This document shows positions 27,464 to 38,009 of a stretch of 64,000 bases of DNA, piece after piece. Location of the stretch: IMG/VR virus record IMGVR_UViG_3300025674_000021, positions 37,707 to 101,706 of that record. One strand, written 5' to 3'. The stretch's first letter is position 1. Every line of letters starts with the position of its first letter. Made by a program: the position numbers and the translations under genes. This stretch comes from a virus. The notes beneath the pieces are model-generated. The model worked only from the letters and a program-made list of their open reading frames with translations. It did no database searches and was not told the DNA's origin.

Positions 27464-27928
27464 ATGGCACGCGATCTAACGAATATCCCACCAGGTCAGA
27501 CACGTTGCAGTGTTTGTGATGTGATGAAGGAGAACACTGAGTTCACGTTCTATAAGAATCGTCACACTGACAACGGTTATCGTTTGATGACCAACACAAA
27601 TTGTGTTTCTTGTCAAAAAGAAAAGAGTAAAGAAAGAAACGCAATTCGAAAAAAATTTAAAAATATTAAACCTCCCTTTTTCGGTGAGGTATGTGATTGC
27701 TGCAAAAAACCAGTGTATCGAAACTGGCAATTGGATCACTGCCATGAAACTGGAGAGTTTCGTGGATGGTTGTGTAAGCAGTGTAACACAGGTCTAGGTA
27801 ACCTTGGAGACAACCTAGAGTCCCTTACCCTTGCTGTAGAATACCTGGAGAGAGCTAAGAAGAATGAAAATCCCGGTCAACTCAATAATCTGTCAAGACA
27901 ACGTATCCTTCTTGAAAACGCTTCCTGA
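27464..27928 (+). CDS. Second Endonuclease VII-like nuclease
   Basis: CSVC..CVSC..CDCC; LDHCHETGEFRGWLCKQCNTGLG. Confidence 0.85.
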   Translation: MARDLTNIPPGQTRCSVCDVMKENTEFTFYKNRHTDNGYRLMTNTNCVSCQKEKSKERNAIRKKFKNIKPPFFGEVCDCCKKPVYRNWQLDHCHETGEFRGWLCKQCNTGLGNLGDNLESLTLAVEYLERAKKNENPGQLNNLSRQRILLENAS

Positions 27929-28706
27929 TGAATGCGTTGATATGGTGGTCACATCCCCTCCATACGACAATCTGAGGGACTACAACGGGTATGACCTGGA
28001 TCTCCATGGTCTTGGGGTAGAACTCCTCAGAGTCCTCAAAGACGGCGGTATATGCATCATGGTGATCCAGGATGCTACTAAGGATGGAGCGAAGACCCTA
28101 ACGTCTTTCAGGACTATCGTTGACTGGTGTGACAACATCGGATTCCGTCTCTTCGAATGCAACATCTACAACAGGCAAGGAACTGAAGGTGCCTGGTGGA
28201 AGAAGAGGTTTAGGGTTGATCATGAGTATATGCCAATCTTTATAAAAGGCAAAAGACCTCAATACTTTGATAAAGAGAACATAAAGATTCCTTCCAAACA
28301 TGCTAATAAAGTAATGACTGGTGCAAACATCAGAACAAAAAATGGAAGAACTGGTTCTAGAAAAGTAAAGATTAATCCTACCAAATGTCCTGGAACTGTT
28401 ATGACATTTGGAAATACTTGTGGTGGTGAAAGTAAATTAAAAAGTCAACACCCTGCAGTATTCCCAAATATGCTTGCATATGACATGATTGAATGCTTTT
28501 GTCCTCCTGAAGGTCTTGTGCTTGATCCTTTTAATGGAAGTGGGACAACTACTCTTGCAGCAAAATCTCTAGGTAGAAATTACATTGGCATTGATGTCTC
28601 TGAGGACTATAATAAGATTGCGATTCAAAGATTAGAGGTTGAAACTATCTACCGTAAAGTTCCTGTAGTGGAATCCGAATATGATATTTTTAACATCGGA
28701 ACCTAA
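27864..28706 (+). CDS. DNA amino-methyltransferase, beta class (N4-cytosine or N6-adenine)
   Basis: TSPPY catalytic motif precedes HPAVFP and DPFNGSGTT SAM-binding motif. Confidence 0.9.
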   Translation: MKIPVNSIICQDNVSFLKTLPDECVDMVVTSPPYDNLRDYNGYDLDLHGLGVELLRVLKDGGICIMVIQDATKDGAKTLTSFRTIVDWCDNIGFRLFECNIYNRQGTEGAWWKKRFRVDHEYMPIFIKGKRPQYFDKENIKIPSKHANKVMTGANIRTKNGRTGSRKVKINPTKCPGTVMTFGNTCGGESKLKSQHPAVFPNMLAYDMIECFCPPEGLVLDPFNGSGTTTLAAKSLGRNYIGIDVSEDYNKIAIQRLEVETIYRKVPVVESEYDIFNIGT

Positions 28707-29204: not shown

Positions 29205-29804
29205 ATGAAAAACCTTTCAGATTATGTAAAAGTTTACGATAATGTGCTTCCAAAAAGCATGTGTGAATACATCATTCGAAGATTTGAATTGAGTGATAAG
29301 AAAGAAGAAGGGATTCCTGGAACTCCAGATGGACCTGTAGATAATGGTTGGAAGAAAGATATGGAAATTGCCATATCATCTCAACCAGAATTTAGAGAAA
29401 TTGATAACTTAATATATGAAAAACTTTCTCCATATTGTGATAGATATATTTCAGAAATGAATAGTATGTTCTGTGAAGAACCAATGCTTGGGGGAACGTA
29501 TTCAGATACTGGTTATTTGATTAAAAGATATGACGTTAATGATGGATGGTTTCACTGGCATCATGATAGTTGTGTAGAAGATTATGGACGTTCATATCGA
29601 TTTGCTGGAATCATCTTTTACTTGAATGATGTATATGAGGGTGGTAAAACTGAGTTTTCTTTTGGCACTACTATTGCTCCAGTAACTGGACGACTTGCTA
29701 TATTTCCAGCATCTTGGCAGTTTATGCATAGAGGAGCAGTTCCTTTAAGCAATGTGAAATATATAATCACAAGTTTTTTGCATATGCCTAGTGCTAGTTA
29801 TTAA
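29205..29804 (+). CDS. 2OG-Fe(II) oxygenase
   Basis: WHHD...YLNDV.EGG.T.F...IFP....H.G....KY pattern. Confidence 0.88.
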   Translation: MKNLSDYVKVYDNVLPKSMCEYIIRRFELSDKKEEGIPGTPDGPVDNGWKKDMEIAISSQPEFREIDNLIYEKLSPYCDRYISEMNSMFCEEPMLGGTYSDTGYLIKRYDVNDGWFHWHHDSCVEDYGRSYRFAGIIFYLNDVYEGGKTEFSFGTTIAPVTGRLAIFPASWQFMHRGAVPLSNVKYIITSFLHMPSASY

Positions 29805-29999: not shown

Positions 30000-30062
30000 T
30001 GGTCCACCCAAAGCAGAAATCTTTTTAACAACTCCATAAATAAAACTGAATATCGTCGTCGC

Positions 30063-30115
30063 TGAGGGGCAACTGGCAAAATCCAGTTGACGCCCCTCAT
30101 TTTTCTTGGTATAAT
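30063..30115 (+). promoter_or_regulatory. Long terminator-like hairpin with embedded sigma70 promoter for the gp43 operon
   Basis: TGAGGGGCAACTGG..CCAGTT-GAC-GCCCCTCA; TTGACG-17 nt-TATAAT. Confidence 0.7.
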
Positions 30116-30136
30116 TTTGAGAGGCACTGAGGCACC

Positions 30137-30478
30137 ATGGCAATTAAAATACTGTTGCTCAAGTCAGGAGAGAACCTGATCGCAGATGTTAAAGATAGAT
30201 TGGTCGATGGGCAGTTTCGCGCATATCGATTAAAAGATCCCCGTATCATTATTGAAACTGATTCGGAAGTAGAGTTTTTAACTGAAGAACCGGAAGAGCA
30301 AACAGAGAAGTCAACTATTGATATCTCTCTTACTCCTTGGTGTTTGCTCAGTGATGATCAAGAGATAGATATAAATCCAGATTGGGTTGTTTACATGGCG
30401 AATCCAATTTCTGATATTCTAGACCTATACGTTAATCCACAAAATGAAAGAGATCAAGTGCATTTTACTGGGAGTTGA
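30137..30478 (+). CDS. Conserved hypothetical protein (Sm-like fold possible)
   Basis: IK.LLLKSGE.LIADV and L.PW motifs. Confidence 0.75.
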   Translation: MAIKILLLKSGENLIADVKDRLVDGQFRAYRLKDPRIIIETDSEVEFLTEEPEEQTEKSTIDISLTPWCLLSDDQEIDINPDWVVYMANPISDILDLYVNPQNERDQVHFTGS

Positions 30479-30698
30479 TACAGTCCTCGTAACCGAAGTT
30501 GAAGCGATTGAACCTGATAACCCAGGAGAACCTGAGTGTGAACTCACCAAACCCTATGAGATTGATGAGGAGGGTGAACTCACTCCATGGCCAAGAGGTT
30601 CTGAAGGAAATGTTATGAGAGTTCACTCTTACAACATTTTGACTATGGTAGATGCAAAGGCAGACATTGTTGCCAAGTACAAAGAGCTTACATCCTGA
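30444..30698 (+). CDS. Conserved hypothetical protein
   Basis: 84-aa ORF abutting the gp43 start. Confidence 0.75.
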   Translation: MKEIKCILLGVDTVLVTEVEAIEPDNPGEPECELTKPYEIDEEGELTPWPRGSEGNVMRVHSYNILTMVDAKADIVAKYKELTS

Positions 30699-31984
30699 TG
30701 CGATTTTACACAAACGTTCAAATGGTCGGGGATCACTTCTTGGTCCGTGGTTATGAAAATGGAAAGCATTTCATGACTCGGGAGAAGTTTTACCCAACTC
30801 TCTTCGTGCCTTCTAAAAAGAAGACAAAATATAAAACATTAGAAGGTGATCACGTTGAAGCAGTTCAACCAGGAACAGTTCGTGACTGTAGGGAGTTCAT
30901 AAAAAAGTACGAGGGTGTGCAGAACTTTAAGATCTATGGTAACACCCAGTACATCTATCAGTACATTTCTGAGATGTACCCTGAAGAAATCATCAAGTTT
31001 GATACTAGTAGAATCAAAATTACTACTATTGATATTGAGGTTGCATCTGAGAATGGATTCCCAGATGTAGAATCTGCTGCAGAAGAAGTTCTTTTGATTA
31101 CAATTCAAGATTACACGAATAAGCAGATTCGTACATGGGGTCAAGGACCTTTTAAGAATACTCAGGAGAATGTAATTTATACTGAGTGTGATTCTGAGTT
31201 TGATCTTCTCACTAAATTTATCAACTGGTGGATGATGGAAGAAAATATCCCTGAGGTTGTTACAGGATGGAACAACGAATTGTACGATATGCCGTATCTG
31301 GTTCGTCGTATGGATCGAGTTCTTGGAGAAAAACTTATGAAAAGAATTTCTCCTTGGGGTCTTGTGACTGAGAGAGAAGTTTTTATCTCTGGTCGTAAGA
31401 ATATTGCATATGATATCGGTGGTATTACTCAACTTGACTATCTAAATCTCTACAAGAAATTTACATACAAGGCACAAGAATCCTATCGTCTGGATTACAT
31501 TGCTAGCGTAGAACTTGGACAGAAGAAACTTGATCACTCTGAGTTTGATACTTTCAAGGACTTCTATACAAATGGATGGCAGAAGTTTGTAGAATACAAC
31601 ATCATTGACGTGGAACTTGTTGACCGTTTGGAAGACAAGATGAAACTAATTGACCTTGCAATCACTCTTGCATATGACGCGAAGGCAAACTATGCCGATG
31701 TATCATCTCAGGTTAGGATGTGGGATACAATCATATATAACTATTTGAAGAAACAAAACATTGTTATTCCTCCGAAAGAAAAGTCGGAAAAAGACAAAAA
31801 GTATGAAGGTGCATACGTTAAGGAACCTACCCCAGGATCTTATGATTGGGTTGTAAGTTTTGACCTCAACTCTCTGTATCCACACATCATCATGCAGTAT
31901 GCAATCAGTCCAGAAACTCTAGTGGACATGAATAATTTAAATGCCAGAATTATGGAGTTAGAAGATGCTCTCCAAACCTATTAA
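30698..31984 (+). CDS. gp43: Family B DNA polymerase, N-terminal fragment (exonuclease plus motif A)
   Basis: DIEV ExoI, GWN..YD ExoII, YNI.DV ExoIII, SFDLNSLYP motif A; terminates shortly after ISPETL. Confidence 0.93.
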   Translation: MRFYTNVQMVGDHFLVRGYENGKHFMTREKFYPTLFVPSKKKTKYKTLEGDHVEAVQPGTVRDCREFIKKYEGVQNFKIYGNTQYIYQYISEMYPEEIIKFDTSRIKITTIDIEVASENGFPDVESAAEEVLLITIQDYTNKQIRTWGQGPFKNTQENVIYTECDSEFDLLTKFINWWMMEENIPEVVTGWNNELYDMPYLVRRMDRVLGEKLMKRISPWGLVTEREVFISGRKNIAYDIGGITQLDYLNLYKKFTYKAQESYRLDYIASVELGQKKLDHSEFDTFKDFYTNGWQKFVEYNIIDVELVDRLEDKMKLIDLAITLAYDAKANYADVSSQVRMWDTIIYNYLKKQNIVIPPKEKSEKDKKYEGAYVKEPTPGSYDWVVSFDLNSLYPHIIMQYAISPETLVDMNNLNARIMELEDALQTY

Positions 31985-32540
31985 AATTAAAAATGTAGTA
32001 CCACAACATCTCTTTGATTCTCTTCAAGATGAATTTGATCATAGTGGATGGTCTCTGGGAAATAAATCGTATAATCAAAAATGGCAAAGAGATGGTTTTA
32101 CCCTGGCAGATTTGCCAGCAAATAGACCTATAATATTTAATATCGCTAGTTACATTAAATTAAAGATTCAAAGATACATAAAGCATGATTTGGCATTTAT
32201 TAGAGCTCATGTGAATGGGTATGTCTATGGTCAAACTGGAGGTTTTCACCAAGATTTTGTTGAGCATAGAACTTATACTTTTATAATGTTTACTCATGAA
32301 AACTGGAACATGCAGTGGGGAGGAGAGTTTGTATGCTATGATGAATCTGCACAGGATTACAAGTTCTTCCCAGCATTGCCTAATACAGGAGTTCTGATAC
32401 CTTCTGATTGGGATCATTACGGAGCTGCTCCAAATGAATATGCTAATTGTATGAGATCAACCATTGGATTCAGTTTTTGTGACCCAAGTATAAAAGAGTA
32501 CATGTCTGAAGTGTGTGCTCAAGTAAAATACTTCACCTGA
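31965..32540 (+). CDS. 2OG-Fe(II) oxygenase inserted in the split gp43
   Basis: FHQD...W...WGGE....H.G.AP....R pattern. Confidence 0.85.
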   Translation: MLSKPIKIKNVVPQHLFDSLQDEFDHSGWSLGNKSYNQKWQRDGFTLADLPANRPIIFNIASYIKLKIQRYIKHDLAFIRAHVNGYVYGQTGGFHQDFVEHRTYTFIMFTHENWNMQWGGEFVCYDESAQDYKFFPALPNTGVLIPSDWDHYGAAPNEYANCMRSTIGFSFCDPSIKEYMSEVCAQVKYFT

Positions 32541-32542
32541 TT

Positions 32543-33895
32543 ATGTGGAAAGACGTTAAAAAAATGTCCAACGAAGAAATTCAATCTGAGTTGGAAAACC
32601 TAAAAAAAGTCAGGGAAATTTCTGCAAATGTCAATGTAGAAAAAATTCTTAATGAGGACATAGATCTTAGTCCTTTGAAAGAAGTCAATCTAACTATTGC
32701 TGCAAACGGAGCACTGTATCACAGGGTCCAGGGGTTTCTTCCACAGATTATGGAGAACCTATACGATGAACGAAAGGCATACAAGAAGAAAATGCTTGCC
32801 GCCGAAAGTCAGTATGAAAAGACGCCCACAAAGAAATTAGAGAAGGATATTTCTAAGTTCAATAACATTCAGATGGCACGAAAGATTCAATTGAACTCTG
32901 CTTATGGTGCTATCGGAAATCAGTATTTTAGGTACTTTAAGTTAGCAAACGCTGAAGCAATCACCCTTTCTGGGCAAGTTGCTGCTCAGTGGATTGAAAA
33001 TAGGATGAACAAGTACCTAAATAAACTGCTAGACACAGGAGATGCAGATTATGTCATTGCATCTGACACCGATTCAATCTATATTAATCTTGGACCTCTT
33101 GTTGATAAACTTTTTGGTCCTAAAAATGGTGACACGGCAAAAGTTGTTAATGTACTGGACAAAATCTGTGCGGAGCAGCTGGAACCGTTCATTGATAAGA
33201 ACTACCAGAGGTTGGCGGAGTATGTATCGGCGCATAAGCAGAAAATGCAAATGAAGCGAGAGTGTATCGCTGAACGTGGAATTTGGACTGCTAAGAAAAG
33301 ATACATTCTGAGTGTCTGGAATAGTGAAGGTGTTAGTTATCTGGAAAGTGGATATAAGTTGAAGATCAAAGGCATTGAGGCAATCAAATCTTCAACTCCT
33401 GCTCCGTGTAGAAAAATGCTTAAAGATTCCTTTCACATTTTGCTGAAGGGGACTGAAAGTGATGCGATTGAATTTATTGAGAAGTGCAGATCTGAATTCA
33501 AACAATTGAGTCCAGAAGAAGTTGCCTTCCCAAGATCAGTTTCTGATGTTAGAAAATATTACTCTTCGTCAGATATCTACACTAAAGGAACCCCCATTCA
33601 TGTGAGGGGAGCACTACTGTTTAATCACTATATCAAAGAGAATAAACTGGATAGAAAGTATTCTCTGATTCAGAATGGAGAGAAGATCAAGTATGTGTAC
33701 CTCAAAAAACCGAATATCATCAGGGAGAACGTGTTCTCCTTCATTCAGGATTTTCCTAGAGAATTGGGTCTTGACAAGTACGTTGACTATGACCTACAAT
33801 TTGAAAAGAGCTTTCTTGAACCTCTTAAGACCATCCTGAACTGTATTGGATGGTCACACGAAAAAACTGCTAACCTCGATTCATTTTTTACCTAA
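32543..33895 (+). CDS. gp43: Family B DNA polymerase, C-terminal fragment (motifs B and C, thumb)
   Basis: KIQLNSAYG motif B, SDTDS motif C, KKRY, C-terminal LDSFF clamp-binding motif; ATG at 32543. Confidence 0.93.
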   Translation: MWKDVKKMSNEEIQSELENLKKVREISANVNVEKILNEDIDLSPLKEVNLTIAANGALYHRVQGFLPQIMENLYDERKAYKKKMLAAESQYEKTPTKKLEKDISKFNNIQMARKIQLNSAYGAIGNQYFRYFKLANAEAITLSGQVAAQWIENRMNKYLNKLLDTGDADYVIASDTDSIYINLGPLVDKLFGPKNGDTAKVVNVLDKICAEQLEPFIDKNYQRLAEYVSAHKQKMQMKRECIAERGIWTAKKRYILSVWNSEGVSYLESGYKLKIKGIEAIKSSTPAPCRKMLKDSFHILLKGTESDAIEFIEKCRSEFKQLSPEEVAFPRSVSDVRKYYSSSDIYTKGTPIHVRGALLFNHYIKENKLDRKYSLIQNGEKIKYVYLKKPNIIRENVFSFIQDFPRELGLDKYVDYDLQFEKSFLEPLKTILNCIGWSHEKTANLDSFFT

Positions 33896-34066
33896 ATGGA
33901 ACTTCCTATCAACGACAAAGAACTTACCACAATTATTAGTGCATTGCGCCTTGGGGGAGATGCCGCTCTTTATCAAAAAATGAAATTGGTGCAGGAAATT
34001 AGAGATCAGAATCCCAATGGACCATACAAGAAAATTCTAAGGGAGAAGTATGGCATGGTCGCCTAA
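33896..34066 (+). CDS. Small hypothetical protein (56 aa)
   Basis: MELPINDKELTTIISALRLGGDAALYQKMKLV...; starts right after gp43 stop. Confidence 0.7.
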   Translation: MELPINDKELTTIISALRLGGDAALYQKMKLVQEIRDQNPNGPYKKILREKYGMVA

Positions 34067-34217
34067 AATCGGTTATTGGACTCCTAATGATTTGTCAGAT
34101 AGTGAGTTACAATATTTGATGGATATATTGGAAAAGAATGATGAAGAATCAAAACTTTACAGTAAGTTTTGGTGTTGGAAAATGAACTACAGGAACAAAG
34201 ATCATGGACTTTCTTAA
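34050..34217 (+). CDS. Small hypothetical protein (55 aa)
   Basis: MAWSPKIGYWTPNDLSDSELQYLMDILEKND...; fills the gap to uvsX with short overlaps. Confidence 0.55.
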   Translation: MAWSPKIGYWTPNDLSDSELQYLMDILEKNDEESKLYSKFWCWKMNYRNKDHGLS

Positions 34218-35211
34218 AGACATTGTAAAAGAAATTGGTGGTGAGTATACACAACTAGCAGCGGATATCGATGAGCAAGAAGAATTTGTTGATACCGGTT
34301 CGTACATTTTTAACGGACTCGTTTCAGGTAGTATATTTGGTGGCGTATCTAGGAATAAGATTACTGCCATTGCTGGGGAGTCTTCTACTGGAAAAACTTT
34401 TTTCGCGCTTGCAGTTGTCAAGAACTTCTTGGATACCAATCCTGATGGTTACTGCATATATTTTGACACTGAAGCCGCTGTTAACAAATCTCTTCTTACA
34501 GATAGGGGTGTTGACCTAAATAGGACTATAGTAGTTAATGTCGTAACTGTAGAGGAGTTTCGTACTAAGGCACTTAAGGCGGTAGATATCTATCTGAAGA
34601 AATCTGAAGAAGAGCGCAAACCTTGTATGTTTGTGCTAGATTCTTTGGGTATGCTTTCCACTAATAAGGAGATTGAAGATGCTCTGAACGATAAGCAAGT
34701 TCGGGACATGACTAAATCACAACTTATTAAAGGAGCATTCAGGATGTTGACCCTCAAACTGGGTCAAGCAGATATCCCTATGATCGTTACAAACCATACT
34801 TATGATGTCATTGGTGCTTACGTTCCAATGAAAAAAATGGGTGGTGGTAGCGGACTTGAGTATGCCTCCAGTACAATTATTCATCTCTCCAAGAAAAAGG
34901 AGAAAGATGGAACTGAAATCGTTGGTAACATTATTAAGGCAAAAACTGCTAAGTCACGCCTTAGTAAGGAGAACAAAGAAGTTGAGATTCGCCTTTATTA
35001 CGATGAGCGCGGTCTTGATAGGTATTATGGTCTTCTTGAGTTGGGAGAAACCGGTGGACTCTGGAAGAATGTCGCCGGACGTTATGAAATATCTGGTAAG
35101 AAGATCTATGCAAAACAGATTCTAAAAGAACCTGAGGTATATTTCACTGAAGATATCATGAACAAGTTAGATGAAATTGCCAAAGAAACATTTAGTTATG
35201 GACACTCTTAA
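34204..35211 (+). CDS. uvsX: RecA-like recombinase UvsX
   Basis: AGESSTGKT, YFDTE, LDSLG, NHTY, MGGG.G motifs. Confidence 0.95.
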   Translation: MDFLKDIVKEIGGEYTQLAADIDEQEEFVDTGSYIFNGLVSGSIFGGVSRNKITAIAGESSTGKTFFALAVVKNFLDTNPDGYCIYFDTEAAVNKSLLTDRGVDLNRTIVVNVVTVEEFRTKALKAVDIYLKKSEEERKPCMFVLDSLGMLSTNKEIEDALNDKQVRDMTKSQLIKGAFRMLTLKLGQADIPMIVTNHTYDVIGAYVPMKKMGGGSGLEYASSTIIHLSKKKEKDGTEIVGNIIKAKTAKSRLSKENKEVEIRLYYDERGLDRYYGLLELGETGGLWKNVAGRYEISGKKIYAKQILKEPEVYFTEDIMNKLDEIAKETFSYGHS

Positions 35212-35755
35212 TGATTTTATCAGGGTGCATGAAAATGCATTAGATTCTGATACATGTGATTTTTTGGTTCGGTTATTTATCCAAAAGAAAAGCAAAACAG
35301 AAAGAGTTGAGTGTGATGGTAAACCTAACTTCACTCAAATGAATCTCACCCAGAACAGAGATATGTCACCTCAGATTAATGAGGTGCATACTAATTTGAT
35401 TAGGGATGTATTCAAGTATCGTGACGAGTATTATCATTATACGTACAAAGAAATCTTTCCAGAGCAACATGCCTTTGAACAGTTTAGAATCAAAGGATAT
35501 GAACCTGGAGGTGTAGATAGATTCGATGCTCATGTAGATGTAAAGGATTATGAGTCATCACGTAGATTTCTTGCGTTCATGTGGTACTTGAATGATGTTG
35601 AATCTGGTGGCAGAACAATTTTCAATGATATGGAGATCACACCAAAGAAGGGATCTCTGCTAGTATTTCCTCCTCTTTGGATGTTTCCTCATATAGGTGA
35701 GCCACCAAAAAGTAACCCGAAATATGTTCTCACTACGTACTTACACTATCAATGA
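35198..35755 (+). CDS. 2OG-Fe(II) oxygenase
   Basis: HVD...YLNDV..GG.T.F..FPP.W.FPH.G..P.S..KY. Confidence 0.88.
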   Translation: MDTLNDFIRVHENALDSDTCDFLVRLFIQKKSKTERVECDGKPNFTQMNLTQNRDMSPQINEVHTNLIRDVFKYRDEYYHYTYKEIFPEQHAFEQFRIKGYEPGGVDRFDAHVDVKDYESSRRFLAFMWYLNDVESGGRTIFNDMEITPKKGSLLVFPPLWMFPHIGEPPKSNPKYVLTTYLHYQ

Positions 35756-37705: not shown

Positions 37706-38009
37706 AATTACAGTCGAAGATTATGAGAAGTATGGTAGTCAGTTCTTTGACAAATACTTCTATGTTGCAAAACAACTAGGTGAAGGAGCAAAGGCAGAAG
37801 ACATCCTAAAAATCATGGAGTCCCTTGGTGGGGTCGTCATGAAAAAACGAATGGAAGAAGAAGGTAAGATTGGTCCTTTTGGTTTCATCCGTGATCAAAT
37901 TGAAGTTAATGCAGACGGAGCACAAGTTATAGGAAATGCATTACAAGTCCCTCCAGGAACTGTTGCAATGCAAGATGAAAACGGTAAGTGGGCTGCTTAT
38001 GAACTCTAA
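37692..38009 (+). CDS. Hypothetical protein
   Basis: ORF with ATG start MKDREITVEDY. Confidence 0.7.
   Translation: MKDREITVEDYEKYGSQFFDKYFYVAKQLGEGAKAEDILKIMESLGGVVMKKRMEEEGKIGPFGFIRDQIEVNADGAQVIGNALQVPPGTVAMQDENGKWAAYEL

Follow-up and report, generated by a model that had tools for sequence, protein, structure and literature searches.

How can the replicative DNA polymerase of a phage work when its gene is broken between the two motifs that hold the catalytic aspartates, and what broke it? The question is posed by gene 43 (gp43, the family B replicative polymerase) in a 64,000-nucleotide (nt) stretch of viral DNA, positions 37,707 to 101,706 of IMG/VR record IMGVR_UViG_3300025674_000021, which we call the window and whose numbering is used for all coordinates given below without a locus prefix. 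An original prediction, made from the letters alone, had proposed a polymerase fractured between motifs A and B, with an oxygenase gene in the break and helical tails in place of an intein. How the fragments of enzymes split by mobile elements find each other is a question that has been raised in the T4 literature (PMC2988022).

The reading that we favor, with a probability of roughly 0.72, is a two-chain gp43 of a T4-like cyanomyovirus, split by a mobile cassette in which a 2-oxoglutarate- and Fe(II)-dependent (2OG-Fe(II)) oxygenase gene has taken the place of an endonuclease gene and whose two helices form a hairpin at the break. Gene 43 is broken in the palm just after motif A, at about residue 430 of RB69 gp43. 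The common form of the cassette runs from an amphipathic helix that ends gp43A, through a stop codon, a free-standing homing endonuclease gene (HNH or GIY-YIG-like) and a start codon, to a right arm made up of a second amphipathic helix and about 40 residues of diverged polymerase sequence, which together open gp43B. Intact polymerase genes of other cyanophages receive the whole cassette as a copy, the likely route being cleavage of the intact allele by the endonuclease and recombinational repair from a cassette-bearing allele. In the window phage and one other lineage an oxygenase gene, of a kind that fills many gaps in cyanophage genomes, has replaced the endonuclease gene, and the polymerase would be made as two chains of about 50 kDa each that reassemble via the native palm interface.

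Anatomy of the split gene 43

The source is a 101.7-kb record, 53% complete, from a T4-like cyanomyovirus whose closest deposited genomes are S-SRM01, S-T4 and Sf-CH8 (all Kyanoviridae). Three close-packed open reading frames (ORFs) on the + strand make up the locus, flanked by hsp20 with two small ORFs on one side and by uvsX/gp41 on the other. The features are as follows.

30698..31984, + strand: gp43A, 428 amino acids (aa); N-terminal domain, 3'-5' exonuclease domain and first part of the palm, including motif A
31031-31042, + strand: Exo I (DIEV), on gp43A
31268-31297, + strand: Exo II, on gp43A
31595-31621, + strand: Exo III, on gp43A
31862-31882, + strand: motif A (DLNSLYP), on gp43A
31928..31981, + strand: C-terminal tail helix of gp43A, MNNLNARIMELEDALQTY, 18 aa, the left arm of the cassette; absent from intact gp43
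31982-31984, + strand: gp43A stop codon
31965..32540, + strand: cargo ORF, 191 aa, member of the 2OG-Fe(II) oxygenase superfamily (PF13640)
32543..33895, + strand: gp43B, 450 aa; remaining palm, fingers and thumb
32543..32623, + strand: N-terminal head of gp43B, MWKDVKKMSNEEIQSELENLKKVREIS, 27 aa, the start of the right arm of the cassette
32624..32750, + strand: remainder of the right arm, a diverged version of the VxVDKILN...ANGAxY segment of gp43
32882-32908, + strand: motif B (KIQLNSAYG), on gp43B (fingers)
33062-33076, + strand: motif C (SDTDS), on gp43B
33293-33304, + strand: KKRY, on gp43B

The ORF coordinates agree exactly with the original prediction of three intact ORFs, the oxygenase ORF overlapping the end of gp43A by 20 nt and its stop codon being separated from the gp43B ATG by 2 nt (TGAttATG). 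The breakpoint and its added tail and head were likewise placed correctly, since gp43A is collinear with the intact gp43 of S-SRM01, S-T4 and Sf-CH8 through ISPETLVD (to 31927) before its 18-aa tail begins, and in gp43B a 27-aa head comes before the polymerase sequence resumes at ANVNVEKILN. Over the N-terminal 410 aa of intact cyanomyovirus gp43, gp43A shows 80-87% identity. In Pfam, gp43A matches PF03104 and the first ~93 positions of PF00136, and for gp43B the PF00136 match begins at position 105. Every exonuclease and polymerase motif is intact, with the Exo motifs and motif A on gp43A and motifs B and C on gp43B, so that the domains and motifs of a family B polymerase of the T4 gp43 type can all be located, divided over two chains, and the two catalytic aspartate motifs do lie on separate ones as had been claimed. 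An alternative gp43B start appears in the ORF list (GTG at 32513); we take ATG 32543 to be the correct one because MWKDV opens gp43B in 53 of 53 distinct related cassettes. The three genes appear to be translationally coupled, given the 20-nt overlap and then TGAttATG, and are probably on one transcript; no + strand terminator was found between the ORFs, and promoter-like sites there were not above chance.

A dead, fragmented polymerase or an artefact of assembly would give a similar picture, and the incompleteness of the record allows a second polymerase gene outside it, although within its 101.7 kb there is only one gp43 match. Against this, all catalytic motifs are intact, the break is common to 101 contigs across diverse backbones (see below), and many independent assemblies contain these three ORFs, as micro-variants whose lengths do not change. 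In clusters at 90% identity, which include the window's own proteins and draw on JGI, ENA and Logan assemblies, gp43A has 6 full-length variants, the oxygenase 9 and gp43B 14, without exception 428, 191 and 450 aa in length, respectively, and contigs of 101,706, 155,776, 53,170 and 205,836 bp each hold members of all three clusters. This recurrence excludes an assembly artefact, and we regard a dead or artefactual locus as extremely improbable.

Alternatively, RNA splicing, protein splicing or ribosomal bypassing might unite the two halves in one chain. gp43A and gp43B share one reading frame, and phage polymerase genes do carry group I introns and inteins. Petrov et al. are said to have described in 2010 an intron in 43B of phage 25, and two cyanomyovirus gp43 fragments (P0109 and P0110, 688 aa, JGI) have a precomputed intein domain hit (PF14890), so gp43 is also an intein target. 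In the window itself each route fails. No Rfam match at E<=1 was obtained across 30000-35000 and no ribozyme core was detected, which speaks against an intron. Pfam finds no intein domain, and the ends, an 18-aa tail and a 27-aa head, are short for a split intein and are predicted to be plain helices; the earlier statement that intron and intein signatures are missing therefore stands. As for bypassing, the gap consists of an intact coding ORF of 576 nt, and the gaps of related loci measure between 47 and 1092 nt, whereas known bypass gaps are tens of nucleotides (PMC2677866). The gp43A stop and the MWKDV start of gp43B are conserved in all cassettes whatever the length or frame of the gap. 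A joined chain thus seems very improbable, and with the catalytic aspartate motifs on separate intact ORFs the polymerase is encoded as two chains and is very likely functional as such.

The mobile cassette and its cargo

The same break recurs widely. A search for gp43A homologues of similar length, made without the tail in the query, returned 37 cluster representatives of 400-429 aa (the window's own among them), all ending in ISPETL followed by a tail of the form xxDELNxRIAELExML. A degenerate DNA pattern (PETL-x8-RIxELE) matched 101 IMG/VR stretches, all of which encode gp43A with the tail after ISPETL, and every locus among them that reaches far enough also has gp43B or a cargo gene. The survey that the original prediction had proposed, for relatives with a shared breakpoint and different inserted genes, therefore came out as foreseen: one break in 101 IMG/VR contigs, with varying cargo. 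Defining the slot as the space from the gp43A stop to the conserved MWKDV start of gp43B, we found the following contents.

HNH endonuclease, ~188 aa, with an N-terminal helix-turn-helix: gap about 602-620 nt, 34 loci (PF01844, 4e-9)
GIY-YIG-like endonuclease, 174-181 aa: gap about 562-574 nt, 14 loci (Pfam below cut-off)
HNH endonuclease and a 54-aa Zn-ribbon ORF: gap 761-780 nt, 8 loci (from reading the ORFs)
HNH endonuclease and Dam methyltransferase: gap about 1090 nt, 4 loci (PF05869, 2e-30)
71-aa HNH remnant: gap 159 nt, 7 loci (PF01844, 5.6e-6)
Empty: gap 47-220 nt, 8 loci (no ORF)
No intact ORF, probably a decayed nuclease gene: gap 572 nt, 2 loci
2OG-Fe(II) oxygenase: gap 543-576 nt, the window and locus L037 only (53% identical to each other)

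An intact HNH or GIY-YIG-like gene thus occupies exactly the same site in at least 60 loci whose gap could be read through, and the oxygenase fills 2 of ~85 readable slots. A further 16 loci end before gp43B; the 12 of these with enough downstream sequence begin an HNH or GIY-YIG-like ORF. The cassette HNH protein had no full-length match in cultured phages (50,697 records). The N-terminal helix-turn-helix of the HNH form (L006:2011-2577 (-), LYIIENKSRKECAEFFGCS...) is homologous to the C-terminal one of the GIY-YIG-like form (L012:1320-1847 (-), LYIIENKTRKQIAEHYNCS...), which suggests that recombination joined a single DNA-binding module to two different nuclease domains aimed at the same target. 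Most HNH cassettes also have a hairpin with a 9-bp stem immediately 3' of the gp43A stop (L006:2572-2628 (-)), with the T4 late promoter-like TATAAATA in its loop and a minimum free energy of -15 kcal/mol (z = -4.7). The GIY-YIG-like cassettes have TATAAATA without the 9-bp stem, and in the oxygenase cassette of the window neither hairpin nor TATAAATA was found (folding of 31940-32010, z = 0.2). The Dam-type N6-adenine methyltransferase gene that lies behind the HNH gene is seen at L048:1401-1856 (+) and also in L034, L056, L063 and L049; L071 keeps a short remnant of it.

The gene is fractured in the usual sense of the term, the window having two collinear ORFs where about 60 of its 80 closest relatives by gp43A have a single intact gene of 833 aa; 2 of the 80 have the cassette. 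What the gap of the window holds is an oxygenase ORF rather than an endonuclease, and since at least 60 homologous cassettes do carry an endonuclease, we take the window cassette to be a derivative that has lost its own. The original prediction had viewed the break as a protected slot for passenger genes. It was right that the genes in the gap differ between phages; that the slot evolved for passengers finds no support, as it appears to have been created by, and to belong to, a homing-endonuclease cassette, with the oxygenase as a rare secondary replacement in the window and L037.

The extent of the mobile unit can be read from split and intact genes that are otherwise nearly the same. Five split loci (L006, L019, L037, L076 and L099) are 95-98% identical in protein to the nearest intact gp43 outside the junction, whereas over 40-80 junction residues identity falls to 35-52%. 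In the same five pairs nucleotide identity collapses directly after SPETL, ~57 nt short of the gp43A stop, and returns near GFLPELME, 195-220 nt into gp43B. The cassette therefore begins with the tail helix, includes the cargo and ends ~66 residues into gp43B. Because this junction block differs inside backbones that are otherwise 95-98% identical, the comparison shows the cassette to be the unit of transfer, with the tails as part of the mobile block. The tails are missing from the intact genes and lie inside the transferred segment, so they are not additions made by this phage but travel with the cassette into near-identical backbones. The flanks of L006 and L182, and those of L076 and L121, are about 95-100% identical in DNA, and these insertions are accordingly recent. 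For the window no near-identical intact backbone was found, and its right boundary is placed near GFLPxxME by analogy with the other loci. In a FastTree phylogeny of the N-terminal region (408 columns, 154 rows) the split loci are scattered among intact ones, the label "standard intact" requiring 22 changes.

By sequence, the cargo of the window is a member of the 2OG-Fe(II) oxygenase superfamily, with the double-stranded beta-helix domain, the iron triad HxD...H and a basic residue predicted to bind 2OG. It matches PF13640 at 29.6 bits (cut-off 27) and phrog_274 at 1.7e-17, and its HxD (HQD, 32247-32255), distal His (WDHYG, 32409-32423) and RxS (RSTIGFSF, 32454-32477) are conserved in L037. 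The label "DNA endonuclease V" on phrog_274 is probably a carried-over misannotation. A GGAG stands 8 nt 5' of the ATG. The window and L037 share arm signatures that no other cassette was seen to have (tail, DMxNLNxRIxELEDAL; head, SELENLKKVREIS), and their cassettes group with a Shimodaira-Hasegawa-like approximate likelihood ratio (SH-aLRT) support of 96, both branches being long. Their backbones are in different well-supported clades, L037 being sister to cultured S-T4 (97% protein identity). These relationships point to a single origin of the oxygenase cassette, and the simplest reading would be that a common cyanophage filler gene replaced the nuclease gene once and that the resulting cassette then recombined into another backbone.

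One could instead suppose a functional tie between oxygenase and polymerase, such as hydroxylation of the enzyme or of DNA bases in replication, with the break existing for co-expression, a link that the original prediction had left as a possibility. The tight coupling of the three ORFs, the retention of HxD...H...RxS in two lineages only 53% identical, and the constant 191 aa of all nine population variants would fit this idea. The rest of the population does not: in about 80 other loci the same slot has nucleases, a methylase, a small Zn-ribbon ORF or nothing, and the oxygenase is confined to the two slots counted above. Homologous oxygenases (27-39% identity) lie at unrelated positions in other cyanomyovirus genomes, and two further 2OG-Fe(II) oxygenase genes flank this very cluster (29205-29804 and 35171-35755, both phrog_61), making three within 6.5 kb. 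As the cargo is interchangeable, we consider a specific functional link quite unlikely and the oxygenase most likely a passenger.

The two helices at the break

If the polymerase is made as two chains, then the ends added at the break are of particular interest. In 53 distinct cassettes the tail motif L-N-x-R-I-x-E-L-E is conserved, with R14, I15, E17, L18 and E19 invariant, and in the head M1, W2, K3, D4, M8, E12, I13, E16, L17 and L20 do not vary. One face of each element, comprising L11, I15, L18 and M21/L22 of the tail and W2, V5, M8, I13, L17, L20, V23 and L26 of the head, is invariant or conservatively hydrophobic while the neighboring positions vary. In an AlphaFold2 model of the window read through as one chain, with stop codons set to Gly and the out-of-frame oxygenase region acting as a 186-residue junk linker (predicted local distance difference test, pLDDT, about 22), the tail is predicted as a helix at 411-429 (pLDDT 87-92) and the head as helices at 608-621 and 625-644 (pLDDT 90-95). 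The model superposes on RB69 gp43 chains with a target-normalised template modeling (TM) score of 0.78-0.83, its input alignment containing intact genes.

The two helices also exist joined. Unsplit genes in which both are connected by a short loop of about 3-8 residues are found in L077 (RIAELESNGKNDEELEALKQVRELS), L064, L011, L042, P0092 and S-CAM7. L077 is a clear relative of RB69 gp43 (phmmer, 2.8e-127), and AlphaFold2 predicts in it a helix at 409-422, a 3-residue loop and a helix at 426-441 (pLDDT 76-82). S-CAM7 (NC_031927; L186:1301-3904), a cultured Synechococcus phage, has a single 867-aa polymerase with a diverged, unsplit helix-loop-helix insertion, and is the sole deposited phage that matches the hairpin region, in its fused form. 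Every complete split seen at this site has both helices. It seems most likely that the cassette helices pack as an antiparallel hairpin at the break, and a hairpin "zipper" of the two chains is plausible from the models. The original prediction had the tails zipped as a coiled coil: their conserved amphipathic character and predicted helicity (pLDDT 87-95) bear it out in part, and the pairing of tail with tail stays an inference. The structure prediction that it had suggested likewise returned an RB69-like fold with both end helices and, giving no coordinates, bears on the helicity of the ends rather than on their contact.

Several observations weigh against the reading as a whole and should be set beside the evidence above. 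With regard to the helices, the models were helix predictions with pLDDT, without coordinates or predicted aligned error (PAE), and isolated helices can score a high pLDDT. The AlphaFold2 input alignments misplaced most tail and head rows, MAFFT having set the tails and heads of split rows in wrong columns and, without intact rows, having aligned gp43B rows onto gp43A, so that there was little depth at the helices; both models are moderate overall (pLDDT 73-76). Mutual information with average product correction (APC) over 52 distinct tail-head pairs showed no antiparallel register, the core positions being invariant. In the split NrdA of phage Aeh1 the tails are not needed for fragment-fragment binding (PMC3045599), and the cassette helices could serve another purpose. 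With regard to the history of the locus, window gp43B is only ~70% identical to its nearest intact relative (L110), against 86% for gp43A, unlike the other split loci, in which both halves track the backbone equally; faster evolution and a second recombination are both possibilities. No relative of the cassette HNH was found in the window's own record (101.7 kb, 53% complete), and the oxygenase cassette has no endonuclease of its own. This nuclease-free cassette may have been moved between backbones by general recombination or by the nuclease of a co-infecting phage.

A reading that takes the first group of these points at face value is that the helices do not pair at all, being neutral leftovers of a donor hairpin or docking on the polymerase body or a replisome protein, with the native palm interface holding the chains together. 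Besides the tails of Aeh1 NrdA, which are dispensable for binding between its fragments, the absence of a covariation pattern and a pLDDT that by itself shows no contact, this reading can call on finger-tip splits of Pfu polymerase that work without added tails and on active finger-tip splits of T4-like gp43. It accounts less readily for hydrophobic faces that are conserved on both helices over 53 distinct cassettes while solvent-side positions vary, for the short loop of the unsplit forms, which forces the helices side by side, and for the presence of both helices in every complete split at this site. We therefore hold unpaired helices to be unlikely and retain the hairpin at the break.

A bolder extension, to which we would give slightly less than even odds, is that the cassette is a self-contained "split-and-zip" module in which the halves of the hairpin rescue an otherwise intolerable break and the gap becomes a heritable landing pad. 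If this were true, the cassette would be a non-covalent counterpart of the split intein, and exchangeable cargo (nuclease, methylase, oxygenase) would be kept partly because translation of gp43B is coupled to it.

Comparison with known split enzymes

The position of the break can be stated relative to RB69 gp43, in which ISPETL corresponds to residues 425-430, 14 residues past the catalytic D411 and before the fingers at ~469. Both long fingers helices of the model (680-708 and 712-739) are on gp43B. A finger-tip split of the class described by Petrov was rejected, as the break precedes the fingers and does not fall between these two helices. The natural splits of T4-like gp43 (phages 133, 44RR, 31, 25 and 65) are all in the finger tip (PMC3061061), while the archaeal Mth polymerase has its split deeper in the palm and the RM378 polymerase is divided where the N-terminal domain gives way to the palm (PMC3061061). 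The 43A/43B pairs of 44RR, 25, 31, 65 and 133 resemble the present locus in having gp43 as two cistrons, and their gap is a short untranslated spacer or a GIY-YIG (seg-like) endonuclease gene (Petrov et al. 2006 and 2010, as described in PMC2988022 and PMC3061061); split 43A and 43B of Aeromonas phage 25 co-purify and are active (PMC2988022). Unlike these, the break described here is ~60-70 residues earlier, in the palm after motif A and inside a lineage-specific helix-loop-helix insertion. Pfu polymerase split at the finger tip retains wild-type activity (Hansen et al. 2011, PMC3061061), and like our locus it makes a family B polymerase from two coupled cistrons with overlapping stop and start, in a fold that tolerates the break; the Pfu split differs in being artificial, at another site, and without added helices or a cargo gene.

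The closest parallel in principle is the nrdA-a/mobE/nrdA-b locus of Aeromonas phage Aeh1 (Friedrich 2007, as cited in later work), in which tails derived from the mobE insertion are essential and were put forward as an antidote to gene fragmentation in general (Crona et al. 2011, PMC3045599). There, too, an essential gene is split by a free-standing HNH gene, the new tails are borne by the insertion, and neither RNA nor protein splicing takes place (PMC3045599). The differences are that the host gene here is a family B polymerase rather than a ribonucleotide reductase, that the cassette tails are amphipathic helices rather than an oppositely charged pair, that they exist as a continuous hairpin in natural unsplit genes, and that the cassette is found in about 100 contigs on many backbones rather than in one phage. 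The window moreover has an oxygenase in place of the endonuclease, and the role of its tails is a prediction from sequence. In cyanophage-like metagenome contigs, Dassa et al. (2009) described fractured genes that come with endonucleases and split inteins, with a hairpin upstream, and derivatives that lack the endonuclease (PMC2677866). The gp43 cassettes share with them the breaking of marine cyanophage replication genes with an endonuclease in the gap, the upstream hairpin, the loss of the endonuclease at some loci, and the supply of control elements for the downstream half by the cassette (PMC2677866); they differ in having no intein halves, so any aided rejoining would be non-covalent and the product would stay two chains. 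No published description of this cyanophage polymerase split was found in the literature searched. What is new is the break site in family B polymerase, the helical tails, the natural unsplit hairpin, the large cassette population and the nuclease-to-oxygenase swap, the principle having already been published for Aeh1 NrdA.

How split fragments find each other has been answered experimentally only for Aeh1 NrdA, and the gp43 cassettes offer a second natural data set that is much larger, with about 100 cassettes, fused genes as natural controls, slots without cargo, and a pair of nuclease families built on a common DNA-binding module. Cultured S-T4, with an intact gene 97% identical to the split L037 backbone, and cultured S-CAM7, with the fused hairpin, provide an experimental handle. 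For enzyme engineering the cassettes mark a point, directly between the two catalytic aspartate motifs, at which a family B polymerase naturally tolerates being split, and for the evolution of cyanophage genomes they indicate how auxiliary genes such as 2OG oxygenases can lodge inside core genes. The gp43 marker amplicon of cyanophage diversity surveys presumably spans this site, in which case split alleles may be under-counted.

Cyanomyovirus gp43 has another recurrent break ("site 2"), which lies at the finger tip and is seen in L042:676-4049, L058, L109, L140, L179, P0002, P0004, P0012 and P0014. Its gp43A' is 481-516 aa long and ends in KKKLEEIExEMRRRGII, its gp43B' starts with MNLSKLSDSQLKELREK, and the gap holds a GIY-YIG-like ORF (L042:2255-2959) or nothing. 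L042 and L058 have the hairpin of the break described above ("site 1") in fused form while being split at site 2, and the two sites are distinct.

Elsewhere in the window, between regA and hsp20, a 280-aa ORF at 27864-28706 with the motifs SPPY and DPFNGSGTT reads as a DNA methyltransferase.

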